This document shows positions 932 through 12,101 of a stretch of DNA of 18,300 bases, one piece after another (positions within the stretch are counted from its first letter, which is position 1; each line of letters opens with the position of its first letter). Position numbers and translations under genes: made by a program. The notes under the pieces are model-generated. The model was not told the DNA's origin and did not search any database. It saw only the letters and a list, made by a program, of their open reading frames with translations. Source of the stretch: a virus. Taxonomy: Duplodnaviria; Heunggongvirae; Uroviricota; Caudoviricetes. Location: IMG/VR virus record IMGVR_UViG_2529292920_000008; one strand, 5' to 3'.

Positions 932-1774
932 TTATGGTTTTTTTTGGTCGTGCTTTGCTAGGGCTTTATGAGTTTTCTTAATGCTGCTTCTAACTTTCTG
1001 AATTTTTTCTTGGGAAAGTTTTATGTTTTCAGGGGCTGTTCCAGTGTTAGAAATCATTACATTGCGAACAGATCTCCCTACGGTCTCAGCAGCATTCTCT
1101 AGTTGAGACTGTCCCTTCAGGTTCTGGTTTCTGATTCTTGCTTCTGTCTGTGTAATTCTGAATATATTGGCCGCGAGCTCTTCGCTTCCCATGAAGTCAA
1201 GCATCGTTCCATCTTTTTTAGTTAGGCCTTTTCGAGCTTTCAACTGTGAGAGATTCATATTGTACATCCCACGGTAGCCCGCATTTTGAAATAGACCATA
1301 GTCGACTACTCCGTGTTTATGGGCTACATGACTGAGAGTTTTCTCTCTAGATGTAATCTCGCCACGCAAATAAACTCGATTAACTGCGTCATGGTTATGA
1401 TATGTAGTGTGTATTTCTGCTGCGAGCCCAGCAAAATAAGCTTGTGCATTTGCAACTTTTTGATTGCTGATGTCACCATTCATTACAATCAGATAACAAG
1501 CGAAACGAGTTAATTTAAAGTCATTTTTCGCATTTTCTGAAGGCATCTGGATGAAGTTATCGTATACAGGGATATCGAGGCTCACACATACAGATGTAGC
1601 TTTGTTAATGGCTTTCAATATCTGATCCATGCCATTATATCCAAGCATCATCGCTAAATCAGATGCAAACCAATAGGTAACACCGTTTTCTCTAGCGAAA
1701 TCATCAAATGTTAACTGTGATGTGTCATCGAAAACAGTAATTTGCCTACTCATATCACACCCGAACTTACTCAT
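932..1774 (-). CDS. DinD-like (DNA-damage-inducible protein D family) / Bro-N-like protein; accessory gene in the rexAB slot of the immunity region
   Basis: 280-aa ORF. N-terminal ...VTYWFASDLAMMLGYNG... resembles the Bro-N/KilA-N DNA-binding motif. I recall overall resemblance to DinD-family proteins, but this is memory, not alignment. AT-rich compared with neighbours. Same strand as cI, 80 nt downstream of it, with its own terminator. Confidence 0.6.
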   Translation of the reverse strand: MSKFGCDMSRQITVFDDTSQLTFDDFARENGVTYWFASDLAMMLGYNGMDQILKAINKATSVCVSLDIPVYDNFIQMPSENAKNDFKLTRFACYLIVMNGDISNQKVANAQAYFAGLAAEIHTTYHNHDAVNRVYLRGEITSREKTLSHVAHKHGVVDYGLFQNAGYRGMYNMNLSQLKARKGLTKKDGTMLDFMGSEELAANIFRITQTEARIRNQNLKGQSQLENAAETVGRSVRNVMISNTGTAPENIKLSQEKIQKVRSSIKKTHKALAKHDQKKP

Positions 1775-4210: not shown

Positions 4211-4908
4211 AAAACATCGCCGCACAGATGGTTAACTTTGACCGTGAGCAGATGCGTCGGATCGCCAACAACATGCCGGAACAGTACGACGAAAAGCCGC
4301 AGGTACAACAGGTAGCGCAGATCATCAACGGTGTGTTCAGCCAGTTACTGGCAACTTTCCCGGCGAGCCTGGCTAACCGTGACCAGAACGAACTGAACGA
4401 AATCCGCCGCCAGTGGGTTCTGGCTTTCCGGGAAAACGGGATCACCACAATGGAACAGGTTAACGCAGGAATGCGCGTAGCCCGTCGGCAGAATCGACCA
4501 TTTCTGCCATCACCCGGGCAGTTTGTTGCATGGTGCCGGGAAGAAGCATCCGTTATCGCCGGACTGCCAAACGTCAGCGAGCTGGTTGATATGGTTTACG
4601 AGTATTGCCGGAAGCGAGGCCTGTATCCGGATGCGGAGTCTTATCCGTGGAAATCAAACGCGCACTACTGGCTGGTTACCAACCTGTATCAGAACATGCG
4701 GGCCAATGCGCTTACTGATGCGGAATTACGCCGTAAGGCCGCAGATGAGCTTGTCCATATGACTGCGAGAATTAACCGTGGTGAGTCGATCCCTGAACCA
4801 GTAAAACAACTTCCTGTCATGGGCGGTAGACCTCTAAATCGTGCACAGGCTCTGGCGAAGATCGCAGAACTCAAAGCTAAGTTCGGACTGAAAGGAGCAA
4901 GTGTATGA
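4207..4908 (+). CDS. P: replication protein P (DnaB helicase loader, lambda type)
   Basis: 233 aa, near-identical to lambda P as recalled. Overlaps the O stop and the ren start (ATGA overlaps). Confidence 0.95.
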   Translation: MKNIAAQMVNFDREQMRRIANNMPEQYDEKPQVQQVAQIINGVFSQLLATFPASLANRDQNELNEIRRQWVLAFRENGITTMEQVNAGMRVARRQNRPFLPSPGQFVAWCREEASVIAGLPNVSELVDMVYEYCRKRGLYPDAESYPWKSNAHYWLVTNLYQNMRANALTDAELRRKAADELVHMTARINRGESIPEPVKQLPVMGGRPLNRAQALAKIAELKAKFGLKGASV

Positions 4909-5195
4909 CGGGCAAAGAGGCAATTATTCATTACCTGGGGACGCATAATAGCTTCTGTGCGCCGGACGTTGCCGCGCTAACAGGCGCAACAGTAACCAGC
5001 ATAAATCAGGCCGCGGCTAAAATGGCACGGGCAGGTCTTCTGGTTATCGAAGGTAAGGTCTGGCGAACGGTGTATTACCGGTTTGCTACCAAGGAAGAAC
5101 GGGAAGGAAAGATGAGCACGAACCTAATTTTTAAGGAGTGTCGCCAGAGTGCCGCGATGAAACGGGTATTGGCGGTATATGGAGTTAAAAGATGA
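4905..5195 (+). CDS. ren: Ren protein (lambda type)
   Basis: 96 aa, near-identical to lambda Ren as recalled (MTGKEAIIHYLGTHNSFCAPDVAALTG...). Immediately follows P. Confidence 0.9.
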   Translation: MTGKEAIIHYLGTHNSFCAPDVAALTGATVTSINQAAAKMARAGLLVIEGKVWRTVYYRFATKEEREGKMSTNLIFKECRQSAAMKRVLAVYGVKR

Positions 5196-5220
5196 CCATC
5201 TACATCACTGAGCTAATAAC

Positions 5221-5253
5221 AGGCCTGCTGGTAATCGCAGGCCTTTTTATTTG
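5221..5253 (+). terminator. intrinsic terminator (tR2-like) downstream of ren
   Basis: Perfect 8-bp stem AGGCCTGC/GCAGGCCT with 8-nt loop, followed by TTTTTATTTG. Confidence 0.7.
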
Positions 5254-5267
5254 GGGGAGAGTAAATC

Positions 5268-5594
5268 GTGGCTGACTGGCAAATACCAATCATCATTCTT
5301 GCCGGAGCTTCGCTGGTTGCTGGCTTTATCCTGCTGAAGAAGCATAAAGACCGTGATCAAAAAGTCGAAGTTCTCTATGGGTATCCGGCGAACAGCACAA
5401 CATGGCTGACTATTTACCACTACCGAAAATCAGGCCGTTGGGTATTCGAATGGGATGATCTGTTTGCTGAAAAGCGACCAAAGTCATGGGGAGACATCAG
5501 CGAATGCATGATGTTTGAAGAAAGAAAATCCGGCGCAACCCGAGAAGAGTTTAACGAAGCGTGGAGGCGATTAAGTGAGAGGGGGTATCAATGA
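5268..5594 (+). CDS. hypothetical single-pass membrane protein (N-terminal TM helix plus ~85-aa soluble domain)
   Basis: 108-aa ORF from GTG 5268 with GGGGGAGAG Shine-Dalgarno. N-terminal hydrophobic segment IPIIILAGASLVAGFILL followed by a charged KKHKDRDQK stretch. No family recognised. Lies where lambda has the ren-ninB junction. Confidence 0.55.
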   Translation: MADWQIPIIILAGASLVAGFILLKKHKDRDQKVEVLYGYPANSTTWLTIYHYRKSGRWVFEWDDLFAEKRPKSWGDISECMMFEERKSGATREEFNEAWRRLSERGYQ

Positions 5595-5616
5595 GCAGAA
5601 TTAAGTCGAGGTAACA

Positions 5617-6063
5617 ATGAAGCAAATATACATGCTTCGCAACGAAGCAATCAGAAACAACGCCATAGACGCAATACTCTCACTTCCGATCGACGACAAG
5701 TCACCTCACGAAGTCCACATTAAAGAACCCAGGCGGAGCAATCCTCAAAACCGCCTTATGTGGGCGTTATTGCAGGACGTATCACGTCAGGTGCTTTGGC
5801 ATGGAAAGAGACTTGCGCCGGAGGACTGGAAAGATCTGTTCACTGCCCTGTGGCTTAAGACCAAAAAACTGGAGCAACGAAGTGCGCCTGGTATCGACGG
5901 TGGCGTTGTCATGCTTGGCGTGCGTACCAGCAAAATGCGAAAGGCCAGCATGACTGAGCTTATCGAAATCATGTTCTGGTTCGGCTCAGAGCGCAACGTG
6001 CGGTGGAGTGATGACTCCCGGCGAGAGTATGAATGGTCACAACGAAAAGGTAGGGCTGCATGA
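5617..6063 (+). CDS. ninB: NinB-like recombination protein (Orf family)
   Basis: 148 aa with recalled similarity to lambda NinB (NRSxxQNRxxWAxLxDVSRQVxWHG, GxRxSKMR, KWSDD motifs). Confidence 0.8.
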   Translation: MKQIYMLRNEAIRNNAIDAILSLPIDDKSPHEVHIKEPRRSNPQNRLMWALLQDVSRQVLWHGKRLAPEDWKDLFTALWLKTKKLEQRSAPGIDGGVVMLGVRTSKMRKASMTELIEIMFWFGSERNVRWSDDSRREYEWSQRKGRAA

Positions 6064-6587
6064 CTATCAAATCAAATACGCCAGCACACGACAAGGACTG
6101 CTGGCAAACGCCGCTTTGGCTTTTTGATGCACTGGATATTGAGTTTGGATTCTGGCTGGATTCGGCAGCGAGCGACAAAAATGCTCTGTGCGCTCACTGG
6201 CTAACTGAGGCTGACGACGCGCTAAATTCTGAGTGGGTAAGCCACGGTGCAATCTGGAATAACCCACCGTACAGCAATATCAGGCCGTGGGTGGAAAAAG
6301 CCGCTGAGCAGTGTATACAACAACGACAGACGGTAGTGATGCTTGTGCCAGAGGATATGTCAGTCGGATGGTTCAGCAAGGCTCTGGAGAGTGTCGACGA
6401 AGTTCGTATTATCACTGATGGACGGATTAATTTTGTCGAACCATCGACAGGACTGGAGAAGAAGGGAAACAGCAAAGGTTCCATGCTGCTGATTTGGCGA
6501 CCGTTCATCAGTTCTCGACGGATGTTTACTACTGTATCCAAAGCGGCATTGATGGCGATCGGGCAGGGCGTCAGGAGGGCAGCATGA
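6060..6587 (+). CDS. phage DNA N6-adenine methyltransferase (Dam-like, small phage MTase family)
   Basis: 175 aa with DCWQTP...[11 protein letters not shown]...LDSAAS near the N-terminus, catalytic NPPY motif ([10 protein letters not shown]), and [13 protein letters not shown] near the C-terminus. ATGA overlaps with ninB and ninE. Confidence 0.8.
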
Positions 6588-6766: not shown

Positions 6767-6933
6767 TTGACCAAAATCGAAGTTACGAACAAGAAAGCGT
6801 CGAGCGAGCTTTAACGTGCGCTAACTGCGGTCAGAAGCTGCATGTGCTGGAAGTTCACGTGTGTGAGCACTGTTGCGCAGAACTTATGAGCGATCCGAAT
6901 AGCTCAATGTACGAGGAAGAAGACGATGAATGA
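6763..6933 (+). CDS. ninF: NinF-like protein (Cys-rich)
   Basis: [56 protein letters not shown], near-identical to lambda NinF as recalled. Start assigned to GTG 6763 overlapping the ninE stop; start uncertain. Confidence 0.7.
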
Positions 6934-7648
6934 GTTAATAAATGGCAATGCCATAAAAATGACAAGCATTGAAATCGCTGAGTTGGTTGGTAAGCGTCAT
7001 GACAATGTGAAACGTACCATCGAAACGCTGGCTAAAAATGGTGTTATCCGGCTTCCTCAAATTGAGGATTGTGGAAGAATCAATGGGTTAGGCTTAAATC
7101 AAAGTTTTTGTGTGTATGTATTCGAAGGCGAACAAGGAAAGCGAGACAGTATTGTCGTTGTAGCCCAGTTGTCGCCGGAATTCACGGCTCGCCTTGTTGA
7201 CCGTTGGCGAGAGCTTGAAGAAGCTGCGGTTAATATCCCAAAAACGCTACCAGAAGCGTTGCGCCTTGCTGCTGACCTTGCTGAGCAGAAAATGCAACTG
7301 GAAAACCAGCTAGCAATTGCCGCACCTAAAGTTGAGTTTGCCGATCGCGTTGGCGAGGCCAGCGGAATTTTGATTGGAAACTTTGCAAAGGTTGTTGGAA
7401 TTGGTCCAAACAAACTGTTTGCGTGGATGCGCGATCACAAAATCCTTATTGCTTCAGGTTCCCGGCGCAATGTGCCAATGCAGGAATATATGGATCGCGG
7501 CTATTTCACAGTGAAAGAAACAGCGGTCAACACAAATCACGGAATACAGATATCGTTCACCACAAAAATCACCGGGTGTGGTCAACAGTGGCTGACCAGA
7601 AAGCTGCTCGATAACGGAATGCTGAAAGTAACAGGGGAGGCTGCTTAA
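6926..7648 (+). CDS. phage antirepressor-type protein (Rha-like N-terminal region plus AntB/KilAC-like C-terminal domain)
   Basis: 240 aa. N-terminal MTSIEIAELVGKRHDNVKRTIETL resembles the Rha regulatory motif; C-terminal half resembles Ant-type antirepressor C-domains. Family assignment from memory. Confidence 0.7.
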   Translation: MNELINGNAIKMTSIEIAELVGKRHDNVKRTIETLAKNGVIRLPQIEDCGRINGLGLNQSFCVYVFEGEQGKRDSIVVVAQLSPEFTARLVDRWRELEEAAVNIPKTLPEALRLAADLAEQKMQLENQLAIAAPKVEFADRVGEASGILIGNFAKVVGIGPNKLFAWMRDHKILIASGSRRNVPMQEYMDRGYFTVKETAVNTNHGIQISFTTKITGCGQQWLTRKLLDNGMLKVTGEAA

Positions 7649-8297: not shown

Positions 8298-8428
8298 ACA
8301 AAGCATTCGAACGATATATGCGCCAGCGTTATGGCAATCGCTACGATCTTACCCGCGATGCTTACGGCTTCTACTGTCGTGAGGTTGTGAAACGAATGTT
8401 TGAAGTGTGGTGTCATTGCAAAGGATAG
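8294..8428 (+). CDS. small hypothetical protein (44 aa), translationally coupled to rusA, in the position of DLP12 ylcG
   Basis: ATG 8294 overlaps the rusA stop (ATGA). Product MNKAFERYMRQRYGNRYDLTRDAYGFYCREVVKRMFEVWCHCKG; stop TAG at 8426-8428. Below the ORF-track length cutoff. Confidence 0.45.
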   Translation: MNKAFERYMRQRYGNRYDLTRDAYGFYCREVVKRMFEVWCHCKG

Positions 8429-8439
8429 AGGGGAAGACG

Positions 8440-9063
8440 ATGAGACTCGAAAGCGTAGCTAAATTTCATTCGCCAAAAAGCCCGATGATGAGCGACTCAC
8501 CACGGGCCACGGCTTCTGACTCTCTTTCCGGTACTGATGTGATGGCTGCTATGGGGATGGCGCAATCACAAGCCGGATTCGGAATGGCTGCATTCTGCGG
8601 TAAGCACGAACTCAGCCAGAACGACAAACAAAAGGCTATCAACTATCTGATGCAATTTGCACACAAGGTATCGGGGAAATACCGTGGCGTGGCAAAGCTT
8701 GAAGGAAATACTAAGGCAAAGGTACTGCAAGTGCTCGCAACATTCGCTTATGCGGATTATTGCCGTAGTGCCGCGACGCCGGGCGCAAGATGCAGAGATT
8801 GCCACGGTACAGGCCGTGCGGTTGATATAGCCAAAACAGAGCAGTGGGGGATAGTTGCTGAGAAAGAGTGCGGAAGATGTAAAGGCGTCGGTTATTCAAG
8901 AATGCCAGCAAGCGCCGCATATCGCGCTGTGACGATGCTAATCCCAAACCTTACCCAACCCACCTGGTCACGCACTGTTAAGCCGCTGTATGACGCTCTG
9001 GTTGTGCAATGCCACAAGGAAGAGTCAATCGCAGACAACATTTTGAATGCGATCACACGTTAG
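8440..9063 (+). CDS. Q: late gene antiterminator Q (lambda type)
   Basis: 207 aa from MRLESVAKFHSPKSPMMSDSPRATASD..., near-identical to lambda Q as recalled. The ORF-track start at 8407 is an upstream extension. Confidence 0.95.
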   Translation: MRLESVAKFHSPKSPMMSDSPRATASDSLSGTDVMAAMGMAQSQAGFGMAAFCGKHELSQNDKQKAINYLMQFAHKVSGKYRGVAKLEGNTKAKVLQVLATFAYADYCRSAATPGARCRDCHGTGRAVDIAKTEQWGIVAEKECGRCKGVGYSRMPASAAYRAVTMLIPNLTQPTWSRTVKPLYDALVVQCHKEESIADNILNAITR

Positions 9064-9300: not shown

Positions 9301-10059
9301 ATGAGTTGTAAGCCAATGTTATCATCTTGTATTGGGGTGGTTATGAAGGATGGTGCACTGCTCAGGAGTTCTTCACTTTTTATTGCCTACATGGGATGCC
9401 TTGGATGGGGGAGTGCTTATTTCTATGGATGGGGTACTTCTTTTTACTACGGCTTCCCATGGTGGATTGTAGGTGCAGGTGTTGATGATGTTGCCAGAAG
9501 TTTATTTTTTGCAGTTATCGTCATTGCTATATTTCTTATCGGTTGGGGTATTGGTGTTGTATTCTTTTTCGCAGTGAAAAGAAAACATTCTATGCAAGAG
9601 CTAAATGTATTTCGCCTTTATTTTGCTGTGGAATTATTGTTTGTGCCGGCAATTATTGAGTTTTCTATATTGAGACAGAAGATTCAGGTACCTCTTTTGC
9701 TACTGTCAGCAGCGATTGCGCTGGCGGTTACAATTTCGATAAGATCTTATGGGCGATTTTTATCGGTATCATGCTTCTATGATAAGCCATTTATAAAAAA
9801 ACATTTTTTTGAGATTGTGATGATTGCTTTTGTGGCATATTTTGGGCTTTTTTCATTTCTGACAGGATATTACAAACCACAGTTTAAGAAAGAATATGAA
9901 ATGATTAATTATAATGATGGTTGGTATTATGTTCTTGCTCGTTATGATAATTGTCTGGTTTTGTCTACTTCTTTCAATGCAGGTAGTAAAAGGTTTGTCA
10001 TTTATCAATCAGCACAAGATAAGAATCTTCAGGTTGATATTGTAAGGACCAGAATTTAA
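9301..10059 (+). CDS. hypothetical multi-pass inner-membrane protein; moron between PR' and the lysis cassette
   Basis: 252-aa ORF (alternative start ATG 9343 behind GGGGTGG) with about 5 hydrophobic helices (e.g. LFFAVIVIAIFLIGWGIGVVFFFAV) and a ~50-aa hydrophilic C-terminal tail. AT-rich relative to flanking genes. No family recognised. Confidence 0.6.
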   Translation: MSCKPMLSSCIGVVMKDGALLRSSSLFIAYMGCLGWGSAYFYGWGTSFYYGFPWWIVGAGVDDVARSLFFAVIVIAIFLIGWGIGVVFFFAVKRKHSMQELNVFRLYFAVELLFVPAIIEFSILRQKIQVPLLLLSAAIALAVTISIRSYGRFLSVSCFYDKPFIKKHFFEIVMIAFVAYFGLFSFLTGYYKPQFKKEYEMINYNDGWYYVLARYDNCLVLSTSFNAGSKRFVIYQSAQDKNLQVDIVRTRI

Positions 10060-10924: not shown

Positions 10925-11140
10925 ATGTATCAGATGGAAAAAATCACAACAGGTGTGTCATACACCACGTCAGCGGTGGGGACGGGATACTGGTTACTGC
11001 AGCTGCTGGACAAAGTCTCTCCGTCCCAGTGGGTGGCAATAGGTGTGCTGGGAAGTCTGCTGTTTGGCCTGCTGACGTATCTGACAAATCTTTATTTCAA
11101 GATTAAAGAAGATAAGCGTAAGGCTGCGAGAGGTGAATAA
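10925..11140 (+). CDS. class II holin / pinholin (phage 21 S-like) with dual-start motif
   Basis: 71 aa [71 protein letters not shown]: two TM segments, Met1/Met4 dual start, charged C-terminus; resembles S21 as recalled. GGGAGACGGAG Shine-Dalgarno. Confidence 0.85.
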
Positions 11141-11637
11141 TGTCGCCGTCATTACGCAAGGCTGTTGCAGCTGCTATTGGTGGTGGGGCTGTTGCCATAG
11201 CGTCTGTGCTCATCACTGGTCCAGGTGGTAACGATGGTCTGGAAGGTGTCAGCTACATACCATACAAAGATATCGTTGGCGTATGGACTGTATGTCACGG
11301 ACACACCGGAAAAGACATCATGCCCGGTAAAACGTATACCGAAGCAGAATGCAAAGCCCTCCTGAATAAAGACCTTGCCACGGTCGCCAGACAAATTAAC
11401 CCGTACATCAACGTCGATATACCGGAAACAACGCGCGGCGCTCTTTACTCGTTCGTTTACAACGTGGGCGCTGGCAATTTCAGAACATCGACGCTTCTTC
11501 GCAAAATAAACCAGGGTGATATCAAAGGCGCATGTGACCAGCTACGTCGCTGGACATACGCTGGCGGTAAGCAATGGAAAGGGCTGATGACCCGTCGTGA
11601 TATTGAGCGTGAAGTCTGTTTGTGGGGGCAGCAATGA
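11140..11637 (+). CDS. SAR endolysin (lysozyme with N-terminal signal-anchor-release domain, R21-like)
   Basis: 165 aa with a Gly/Ala-rich weakly hydrophobic N-terminus ([20 protein letters not shown]) followed by a lysozyme-like domain. Directly follows the pinholin, a known functional pairing. Confidence 0.85.
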
Positions 11638-12101
11638 GCAGGGTAACCGCGATTATCTCCGCTCTGGTTATTTGCATCATCCTCTGCCTGTCATGGGCTG
11701 TTAATCATTACCGTGATAACGCCATCGCCTACAAAGAGCAGCGTGATAAAAAAGTCAGTGAGCTGAAGCAGGCGACCGCCACCATTACTGACATGCAGCA
11801 ACGCCAGCGTGCTGCTGATGTACTCGATGCTAAATACACGAAGGAGTTAGCCAATGCGAAAGCTGAAAATGATGCTCTTCGGCGTAAGCTTGATAATGGT
11901 GGTCGGGTGCTCGTCAAAGGAAAATGCCCTGTGCCAGCCTCAGCCAAAACCTCCAGCTCCTCCGGCATGGGCAATGATGCCACCGTCGAACTCTCTTCAG
12001 TTGCTGGACGAAACGTTCTCGGTATCCGGGACGGAATTATCCGTGACCAAACAGCACTGAGAACGCTTCAGGAGTACATCAGGACGCAATGCCTGAAATA
12101 A
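11634..12101 (+). CDS. Rz: Rz i-spanin (N-terminus lambda-like, C-terminal half diverged)
   Basis: [31 protein letters not shown]... matches lambda Rz over roughly the first 100 residues as recalled; the C-terminus differs. ATGA overlap with the endolysin stop. Confidence 0.9.
11854..12060 (+). CDS. Rz1: Rz1 o-spanin lipoprotein, embedded in the +1 frame of Rz
   Basis: [21 protein letters not shown]...: signal peptide with lipobox-like VVGC and a proline-rich mature region ([12 protein letters not shown]). Embedded arrangement typical of Rz/Rz1. Confidence 0.8.

Follow-up and report, generated by a model that had tools for sequence, protein, structure and literature searches.

Which gene occupies the junction between ren and ninB behind the tR2 terminator of a lambdoid phage, how would it be expressed, and what might its product do? 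The question is raised by an 18,300-nt stretch of DNA from a tailed phage of the Caudoviricetes (IMG/VR record IMGVR_UViG_2529292920_000008), referred to at its full length as the window. A first-pass annotation, made from the letters alone, had placed at this junction a terminator, a GTG-initiated open reading frame (ORF) of 108 amino acids (aa) with a Shine-Dalgarno sequence, and a 27-aa ORF overlapping the terminator hairpin; reading of the sequence and a terminator scan recovered all of these at the same positions. The 108-aa ORF (5268-5594, plus strand, as are the features described below from ren to ninB and the nutR-like site) is a homologue of gene 46 of Shigella phage Sf6 and is called gp46 here. 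The interval is a standard, already annotated lambdoid mosaic junction with an optional accessory gene and not a new system: in the Sf6 record (AF547987), gene, micro-ORF, terminator and boundary sequence all carry annotations in the same arrangement.

The junction is built around an intrinsic terminator (5221-5252), which consists of a stem-loop (5221-5244) and a T-run (5245-5252) according to both the terminator scan and RNA folding. The hairpin has an 8-bp stem with six G-C pairs (AGGCCTGC-TGGTAATC-GCAGGCCT) and is followed by TTTTTATTT. Judged by its letters, hairpin plus T-run is the lambda tR2 sequence; lambda tR2 has been documented as terminating transcription (PMC4824070), and the Sf6 record annotates the identical sequence as 'terminator, homology to phage lambda; tR2'. 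The fold of positions 5185-5300 was overall no more stable than that of shuffled sequences (z -0.85), with the tR2 hairpin alone standing out, and the 1.4-kb region contained four terminator-like sites versus 1.0 expected.

The terminator lies inside a block of ~70 bp (5192-5261) that runs from the ATG of the 27-aa ORF through tR2 to the Shine-Dalgarno run GGGGGAGAG (5253-5261) and matches the 'bsq6 boundary sequence' of Sf6. Homology to Sf6, Salmonella phage vB_SosS_Oslo (Oslo) and phage 21 starts exactly at this ATG and remains near-identical through GGGGGAGAG, while the flanks diverge. We compared the junction by script in 120 IMG/VR stretches carrying the exact tR2 hairpin, together with the window and reference loci, with counts taken over 108-125 loci. 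This comparison showed that the block, with tR2 inside the micro-ORF and a Shine-Dalgarno run at its end, is common to many lambdoid phages, and that the run serves whichever gene comes after the block.

The 27-aa ORF (MTIYITELITGLLVIAGLFIWGRVNRG; 5192-5275), which the first-pass annotation had set aside as a possible chance frame, is NinA. It matches PHROG 5907 (E = 1.3e-18, residues 1-26 of 27), it agrees with the commonest allele at tR2 loci in all of its first 22 residues, and the same frame is annotated as NinA in phage 21 and as gene 45 ('similar to phage 21 NinA protein') in Sf6. Reading through the tR2 hairpin, NinA joins the upstream stop to the downstream start: its ATG overlaps the TGA of ren (ATGA, 5192-5195), and its own TGA (5273-5275) lies 3 nt past the GTG of gp46 (5268), an offset of -5. 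The survey showed that these overlaps adjoin whatever genes lie on either side. Upstream, NinA is preceded by at least seven unrelated genes, whose stop its ATG abuts or overlaps; ATGA is present at all 119 usable loci, and every one of these contexts has, 7-11 nt ahead of the ATG, a motif that is GGAG-like or purine-rich. Downstream, at least eight unrelated genes follow at 108 loci, and at nearly all of them the start codon precedes the NinA stop by 1 nt (ATGA or GTGA) or by 5 nt (GTGGCTGA). The tight chaining of nin genes through ATGA has been on record since Kroger and Hobom 1982, as cited in PMC8022706. Because the start and stop overlaps are kept in every genomic context examined, and because of the PHROG 5907 match, NinA is not a chance frame; its initiation site in lambda was, moreover, active in vivo in a reporter and described as "not weak" (PMC4824070). 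A codon-position test over the first ten codons gave seven synonymous and five conservative changes, compared to six and six in the control frame. On the whole, NinA is best regarded as a conserved micro-ORF that is very probably translated.

The position behind tR2 is filled differently from phage to phage. Among the 108 loci, lambda-type NinB follows directly at 48, a 68-aa protein of PHROG 1165 with two transmembrane (TM) helices at ~25, gp46 at 13 and a 92-aa protein of PHROG 343 at seven; the remainder is made up of a gene for a 90-aa TM protein (PHROG 667) and several others. Beside the PHROG 1165 and PHROG 667 genes, five other small genes use this slot. The gene had been placed at the ren/ninB junction behind tR2, which the comparison across lambdoid phages bore out, and phage lambda and phage 21 have nothing there. 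In the phage 21 record and at lambda-type junctions, the end of ren, the NinA start, the tR2 hairpin and GGGGGAGAG are identical to those of the window, with ATGA-type overlaps at both NinA ends, but the NinA stop overlaps the ninB ATG directly, whereas in the window a 327-bp gene lies in between and NinA ends in ...GRVNRG in place of ...GRGKS. Sf6 (genes 45 and 46, bsq6 and tR2) and Oslo (AMBK_59) share the order of the window, in which the stop of the preceding gene is followed by a NinA-like micro-ORF with tR2 and then the 108-aa gene. They differ in the upstream gene, which is a DnaB-like helicase or primase-helicase in Sf6 and Oslo compared to ren in the window, and in the 6 nt between Shine-Dalgarno run and GTG, which are GGAAGT in both phages and TAAATC in the window. 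Downstream, ninB follows in the window and in Oslo, and gene 47 in Sf6. The PHROG 1165 gene takes the place of gp46 (equivalent of 5262-5470) in about a quarter of the tR2 loci among IMG/VR loci L008-L127. It follows the same block, shares the junction TAAATCGTGGCTGA and the first two codons with gp46, and its product is membrane-embedded as well; the sequence is unrelated, however, with two TM helices and without a soluble domain.

More distant prophages (L132-L135) carry a diverged NinA-like ORF (peptide MTEAYIAELSASVAVIVGLFYARRKW) with a different hairpin (GGCCGTGATAGTCGGCC followed by a T-run). Located ~77 nt upstream of the gp46 homologue P0031, this ORF starts with ATGA after each of three different upstream genes and overlaps, through GTGA, with a gp46 homologue of 68% identity; a second terminator-like hairpin comes after the gene (L132, 5281-5299). 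In some E. coli and Salmonella prophages (L147-L151), NinA and gp46 are fused in frame into proteins of 133-137 aa at the junction equivalent to 5245-5275, and these fusion genes hold the tR2 hairpin within their coding sequence. The DNA of two fusions (P0006 and P0001) shows the loss of 1 nt in or beside the G5 run of an Sf6-type Shine-Dalgarno junction. The occurrence of one fusion allele in 23 contigs rules out a sequencing error; its product would have two predicted TM helices, with the domain still cytoplasmic. The layout of ren end, NinA and tR2, in which a short ORF runs into a terminator, is attenuator-like. An Rfam Trp_leader match over the same three elements (5161-5250) scored 20.1 bits against a threshold of 41 bits (E = 0.29) and is almost certainly due to chance.

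The 108-aa ORF is annotated in RefSeq as the hypothetical protein WP_000796283.1, and gene 46 is entered in the Sf6 record as a 108-aa protein without a note. Its GTG lies 6 nt after the end of GGGGGAGAG and 8 nt after the GGAG, with an in-frame TAA (5262-5264) ahead of it. All 108 residues align with positions 1-108 of the PHROG 5903 profile (E = 9.1e-76), and the protein is 98.1% identical to Sf6 gp46 over 107 of 108 residues and likewise 98% identical, at full length, to Oslo AMBK_59. In a megablast search of phage records, the same DNA was found in Sf6, Oslo and phage S.Kent 1-2-1 at 96-98% identity. Among 15 distinct full-length alleles, 20 variable codons showed synonymous changes only and ten were amino-acid-changing, 20 of the 33 variable sites fell on codon position 3, and mean pairwise divergence in the soluble domain was 0.119 at synonymous (dS) and 0.014 at nonsynonymous sites (dN), which corresponds to a dN/dS of ~0.12. 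The gene is thus real and under purifying selection.

The family is small, and was seen here only in phages, prophages and metagenomic contigs. We recovered 58 relatives from 5.8 billion proteins, and an exhaustive hidden Markov model search of 1.84 billion representatives gave 39 clusters only, from a library that carries no annotation. Homology nevertheless persists down to 27-45% identity in unrelated phages, and the gene is present at ≥95% nucleotide identity in 108 of 5426 complete E. coli genomes, as 'hypothetical protein' wherever it is annotated. The first reading had assigned the protein to no recognisable family. This holds for Pfam, NCBIfam and PADLOC, in which neither the 108-aa protein nor the 133-aa fused form had a significant match, but does not hold otherwise, since the protein belongs with Sf6 gp46 in PHROG 5903 and is WP_000796283.1 in RefSeq. 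Matches of either form to FG-GAP_3, SLATT and the LPXTG anchor all fell far below threshold and were dismissed. Homology and structure searches thus returned Sf6 gp46 and the relatives in PHROG 5903, but no match of known function: PDB sequence searches with two family profiles gave chance matches only (E 0.29 or worse), a second, word-indexed search with a broader profile added nothing that carries an annotation, and no study of the protein turned up in the literature under its accession or the name 'Sf6 gp46'.

Both parts of the protein layout that had been proposed, one N-terminal TM helix followed by a soluble domain, were supported. The helix is encoded at 5280-5348; residues 5-23 form its hydrophobic core and are the best 19-residue stretch, with a mean Kyte-Doolittle hydropathy of 2.28. 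The full-length AlphaFold2 model has a mean predicted local distance difference test score (pLDDT) of 86.6 and comprises a helix (5-27), strands (32-39, 46-52, 57-63 and 81-84) and a C-terminal helix (92-104). The soluble domain (residues 30-108, encoded at 5355-5591) accordingly has three strands, a loop, a fourth strand and then a helix, and carries the motifs YGYP, TWLTIY, FEWDDLF and RP; modelled by itself (residues 28-108), it reached a pLDDT of 92.0 and a predicted template modelling score of 0.81. It may represent a new small fold. A Foldseek search of the model against the viral structure library BFVD gave two significant matches only, both to uncharacterised proteins of phages Goslar and IME207 that are apparently family members. 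In an alignment of 30 sequences, Y37, G38, Y39, P40, W46, L47, T48, Y50, F60, E61, D63, D64, L65, F66 and R70 are invariant, and G38, P40, W46, D63, D64, F66 and R70 are kept across 37 diverse members. The N-terminal 25 residues vary in sequence and retain their hydrophobicity. The helix is preceded by MADW (net charge -1) and followed by KKHKDRDQK, with its KKHKDR cluster. By the positive-inside rule, we infer a single TM helix that has the N-terminus outside and keeps the domain of ~80 residues on the cytoplasmic side of the inner membrane.

A cytoplasmic domain also fits with the homologues in the virulent phages KookSpook, Goslar and CF-SP1, which have a short amphipathic N-terminus without a TM helix, and with more distant members, which show a C-x4-H...C-x2-C pattern suggestive of zinc binding. 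Several distant members without a TM helix (P0068, P0070, P0072-P0077, P0080, P0084, P0088 and P0089) show C-x(2-4)-G-x-H-K at the N-terminus and, in the turn that joins strands 2 and 3, C-x-[RKH]-C, a putative zinc site that would have been lost in the membrane-anchored branch. The distant TM-less members share an N-terminal C-x2-G-x-H-K...C-x-R-C arrangement with Pfam DUF1660 (PF07874, 'Prophage protein'). The best of them, P0077, remained below the gathering score of 21.4 (18.8 bits, E = 0.0025), and the gp46 of the window, which lacks the Cys/His ligands, had no match. The charge of the domain is inconsistent across the family, with isoelectric points from 4.8 to 9.7, and DNA mimicry or DNA binding was rejected on this ground. 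Together with the conserved aromatic and acidic surface (YGYP, FEWDDLF, RP), the varying net charge suggests protein binding instead. A beta-clamp motif (QL[SD]LF) or a motif like the tail of single-stranded DNA-binding protein in FEWDDLF was likewise rejected, because only 'DLF' matches and the segment is modelled as structured.

That expression would depend on antitermination by N had been proposed from the position of the gene and is soundly argued. The stretch from 4800 to 6200 showed no sigma-70-like promoter, and the gene is part of the pR operon, behind tR2. The window contains both an N-like antiterminator gene on the minus strand (221-577; match to PHROG 271, anti-termination protein N-like, at E = 6e-25), whose product is presumably the factor that carries RNA polymerase through tR2, and a nutR-like site between cro and cII (2851-2896). 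The latter comprises a boxA-like CGCTCTTTG (2851-2859) and a boxB-like hairpin TCGCTGAAAAGCGA (2883-2896), which we take to be a nut site from their likeness to the lambda and P22 nut consensus. For these reasons, gp46 can be expected to be silent in the lysogen and to be expressed as a delayed-early gene when N lets polymerase past tR2. After induction, N-modified RNA polymerase would read from pR past tR2, and ribosomes ending ren would restart on NinA, translate across the hairpin and stop at the TGA (5273-5275). They would then restart at the GTG (5268), aided by GGGGGAGAG, and produce gp46 as a delayed-early protein, whose TM helix (residues 5-23) would hold the compact 80-residue domain at the cytoplasmic face of the inner membrane.

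What the protein does there is the most tentative part of an explanation in which, taken as a whole from junction and expression to protein and function model, we have moderate confidence. As a possible rather than a probable function, we propose that gp46 is a non-essential accessory factor tethered to the membrane, where its conserved aromatic/acidic surface would bind a partner protein, most likely a part of the replication machinery or a competitor of it. In experimental evolution of Sf6, 61 of 82 isolates had deletions that eliminated genes 46-58 partly or wholly, and lysis of these viable mutants was faster (PMC5630979). In lambdoid prophages of several genera, the gp46 homologue is the first or nearly the first gene after the replication module, of which we found four sets: O/P/ren, a DnaB-type helicase, a Toprim/AAA_25 primase-helicase and a DnaC-like loader. 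In 56-78-kb contigs with an 877-aa DNA polymerase A, which we take to be N4-like, the homologue directly follows the polymerase, with no further gene ahead of a terminator and a promoter-like site, and in Swiduovirus CF-SP1 it lies between primase and SF2 helicase, with its stop overlapping the helicase start. Overall, homologues are known from putatively N4-like, T1-like and jumbo phages as well as from a 112-kb E. coli phage, frequently beside replication genes, and many of them have no TM helix. Phage phi29 p16.7 and p1 are membrane organisers of phage DNA replication. Their likeness to gp46 is one of logic only, in that a small, early-expressed protein combines a membrane anchor with a cytoplasmic domain and is encoded beside replication genes (for gp46, these are predictions and associations); no sequence or structural match was found, and no DNA-binding character is evident in gp46.

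Several points weigh against this proposal and the expression model that it builds on. The link to replication is guilt by association: the lambdoid position of gp46 is set by the place of the tR2 boundary, phage early regions are generally rich in replication genes, and the neighbours in Goslar, KookSpook and the metagenomic locus L140 are uninformative. With isoelectric points so varied across the family, nothing points to DNA binding or mimicry. Translation of gp46 is predicted from its sequence, and the one argument for its topology is the positive-inside rule. The geometry of NinA, from which its bridging role is read, fits the passing of ribosomes across the terminator to the next gene, and NinA translation lowered tR2 efficiency by only ~10% in a reporter (PMC4824070).

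The same observations can be read in other ways. A host-takeover or toxic effector, whose membrane-tethered domain would inhibit host division, envelope or transport functions or an enzyme during lytic growth, as lambda Kil or other small early phage proteins do, with no specific link to replication, would also be small, non-essential, delayed-early and membrane-anchored in temperate phages. Other small membrane proteins use the same slot (the two-TM PHROG 1165 protein of 68 aa at ~25 of 108 loci and the 90-aa PHROG 667 protein), and the family is spread over unrelated virulent and temperate phages in the manner of portable accessory genes. This role, which the first-pass annotation had also raised, nonetheless seems rather unlikely, as Pfam, NCBIfam and structure searches gave no homology to known host-takeover proteins and the recurrent adjacency to polymerase, primase and helicase genes would be left unexplained. 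An anti-defence protein, whose conserved domain would bind to a host immune protein and block it early in infection, could equally be encoded by a small accessory gene that moves fast, occurs in many types of phage, uses a variable slot and is dispensable in a laboratory host, and a Lar restriction-alleviation homologue is among the neighbours in the putatively N4-like contigs. We regard this as improbable: the soluble domain, with its invariant YGYP, FE.DDLF and R, is strongly conserved and not obviously shaped by an arms race, and it showed no similarity to solved anti-defence proteins. The protein also had no match in PADLOC, whose models cover defence and not anti-defence proteins.

Superinfection exclusion, the other role suggested for a small membrane protein at this position, would require that gp46 block the entry of incoming phage DNA. 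A predicted single-pass inner-membrane protein in a prophage would suit such a role, and the neighbouring ren is itself named an exclusion protein. However, a gene in the pR operon behind tR2, without a promoter-like site between 4800 and 6200, is not expected to be expressed in the lysogen. The conserved part is the predicted cytoplasmic domain and not the TM sequence, the homologues in virulent phages have no TM helix, and gp46 showed no likeness to exclusion proteins of the SieA, Imm or HK97 gp15 type, with no match in PADLOC, Pfam or NCBIfam and, among significant matches, only two uncharacterised phage proteins, apparently family members, in BFVD. We therefore consider exclusion very improbable. 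Least probable of all, to the point of being negligible, is that the 108-aa ORF is untranslated and the interval only terminator and spacer. The GTG start and a coding status inferred from sequence would leave room for this, but it is at odds with a dN/dS of ~0.12 and third-position bias, with a domain conserved down to 27-45% identity in unrelated phages, with the confident AlphaFold2 model, and with the Shine-Dalgarno run and coupled start. A role as holin or antiholin was rejected, given that the genes annotated in RefSeq for holin, lysozyme and lysis protein come after Q, at a distance of ~5.3 kb downstream (L004 11776-12501, approximately 10925-11650 in the window). The membrane-tethered accessory factor with a protein partner in replication thus remains the function that we tentatively favour.

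The wider setting of the locus is that of a known prophage. The 501 bases around gp46 match the chromosome of E. coli O127:H6 E2348/69 at 100% (~1.055 Mb), where the surrounding genes are, according to RefSeq, those of a lambdoid prophage. They encode, in this order, a LexA-family repressor, a cro-like helix-turn-helix regulator, CII, an O-like replication protein, replication protein P, ren and WP_000796283.1, followed by NinB, a Dam-type methyltransferase, NinE, NinF, a KilAC antirepressor, RusA, an antiterminator and then the lysis genes. Scans of the window with Pfam (lambda P, NinB, Dam) and PHROGs (Ren, NinB) agree with RefSeq. The last gene before the boundary block is ren (96 aa, 4905-5195; PHROG 142 Ren-like exclusion protein, E = 3.6e-42; 'protein ren' in RefSeq), and ninB (148 aa, 5617-6063; Pfam NinB, E = 4e-48), which directly follows tR2/NinA in lambda-type phages, comes after gp46. 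Between gp46 and ninB, the sequence contains a mini-ORF of seven codons (MSRIKSR; ATG AGC AGA ATT AAG TCG AGG TAA; 5591-5614), whose ATG overlaps the gp46 stop (ATGA) and whose TAA ends 2 nt 5' of the NinB ATG (5617). In an alignment with Oslo and Sf6, this mini-ORF is shared by Oslo, and Sf6 has a GTG at its place, which is the start of gene 47 and overlaps gene 46 at its end. The mini-ORF has the look of a further ribosome 'bridge' or of what remains of a deleted gene.

Additional genes were observed elsewhere in the window. The Dam-type N6-adenine methyltransferase (6060-6587) lies directly 3' of NinB with an ATGA overlap (6060-6063), and the KilAC/Ant-type antirepressor follows NinF in the nin region of the prophage (6926-7648); to our knowledge, the lambda nin region has neither. 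A BRO-family gene for a 280-aa protein (932-1774, minus strand) is located between the N-like gene and the repressor, and a 252-aa ORF of PHROG 1521 (9301-10059) between the Q-like antiterminator (8407-9063) and the lysis genes, a position that holds toxin genes and other cargo in Shiga toxin (Stx) phages.

As found, the locus matters little, since its arrangement is already in the Sf6 record and the identical protein is in RefSeq as hypothetical. The analysis corrects the view of the 27-aa frame as accidental, and reveals the position after tR2 as a recurrent slot for small genes, several of them for membrane proteins, each stop/start-overlapped with NinA. For the gp46 family, the domain is now defined, its topology predicted and the distribution shown to be phage-wide, and the association with replication genes offers a testable lead. 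The residual interest lies in the gp46 domain and its replication-linked context: should this domain turn out to target part of the replisome, it would offer a compact new tool and add a new case of a phage controlling host replication.

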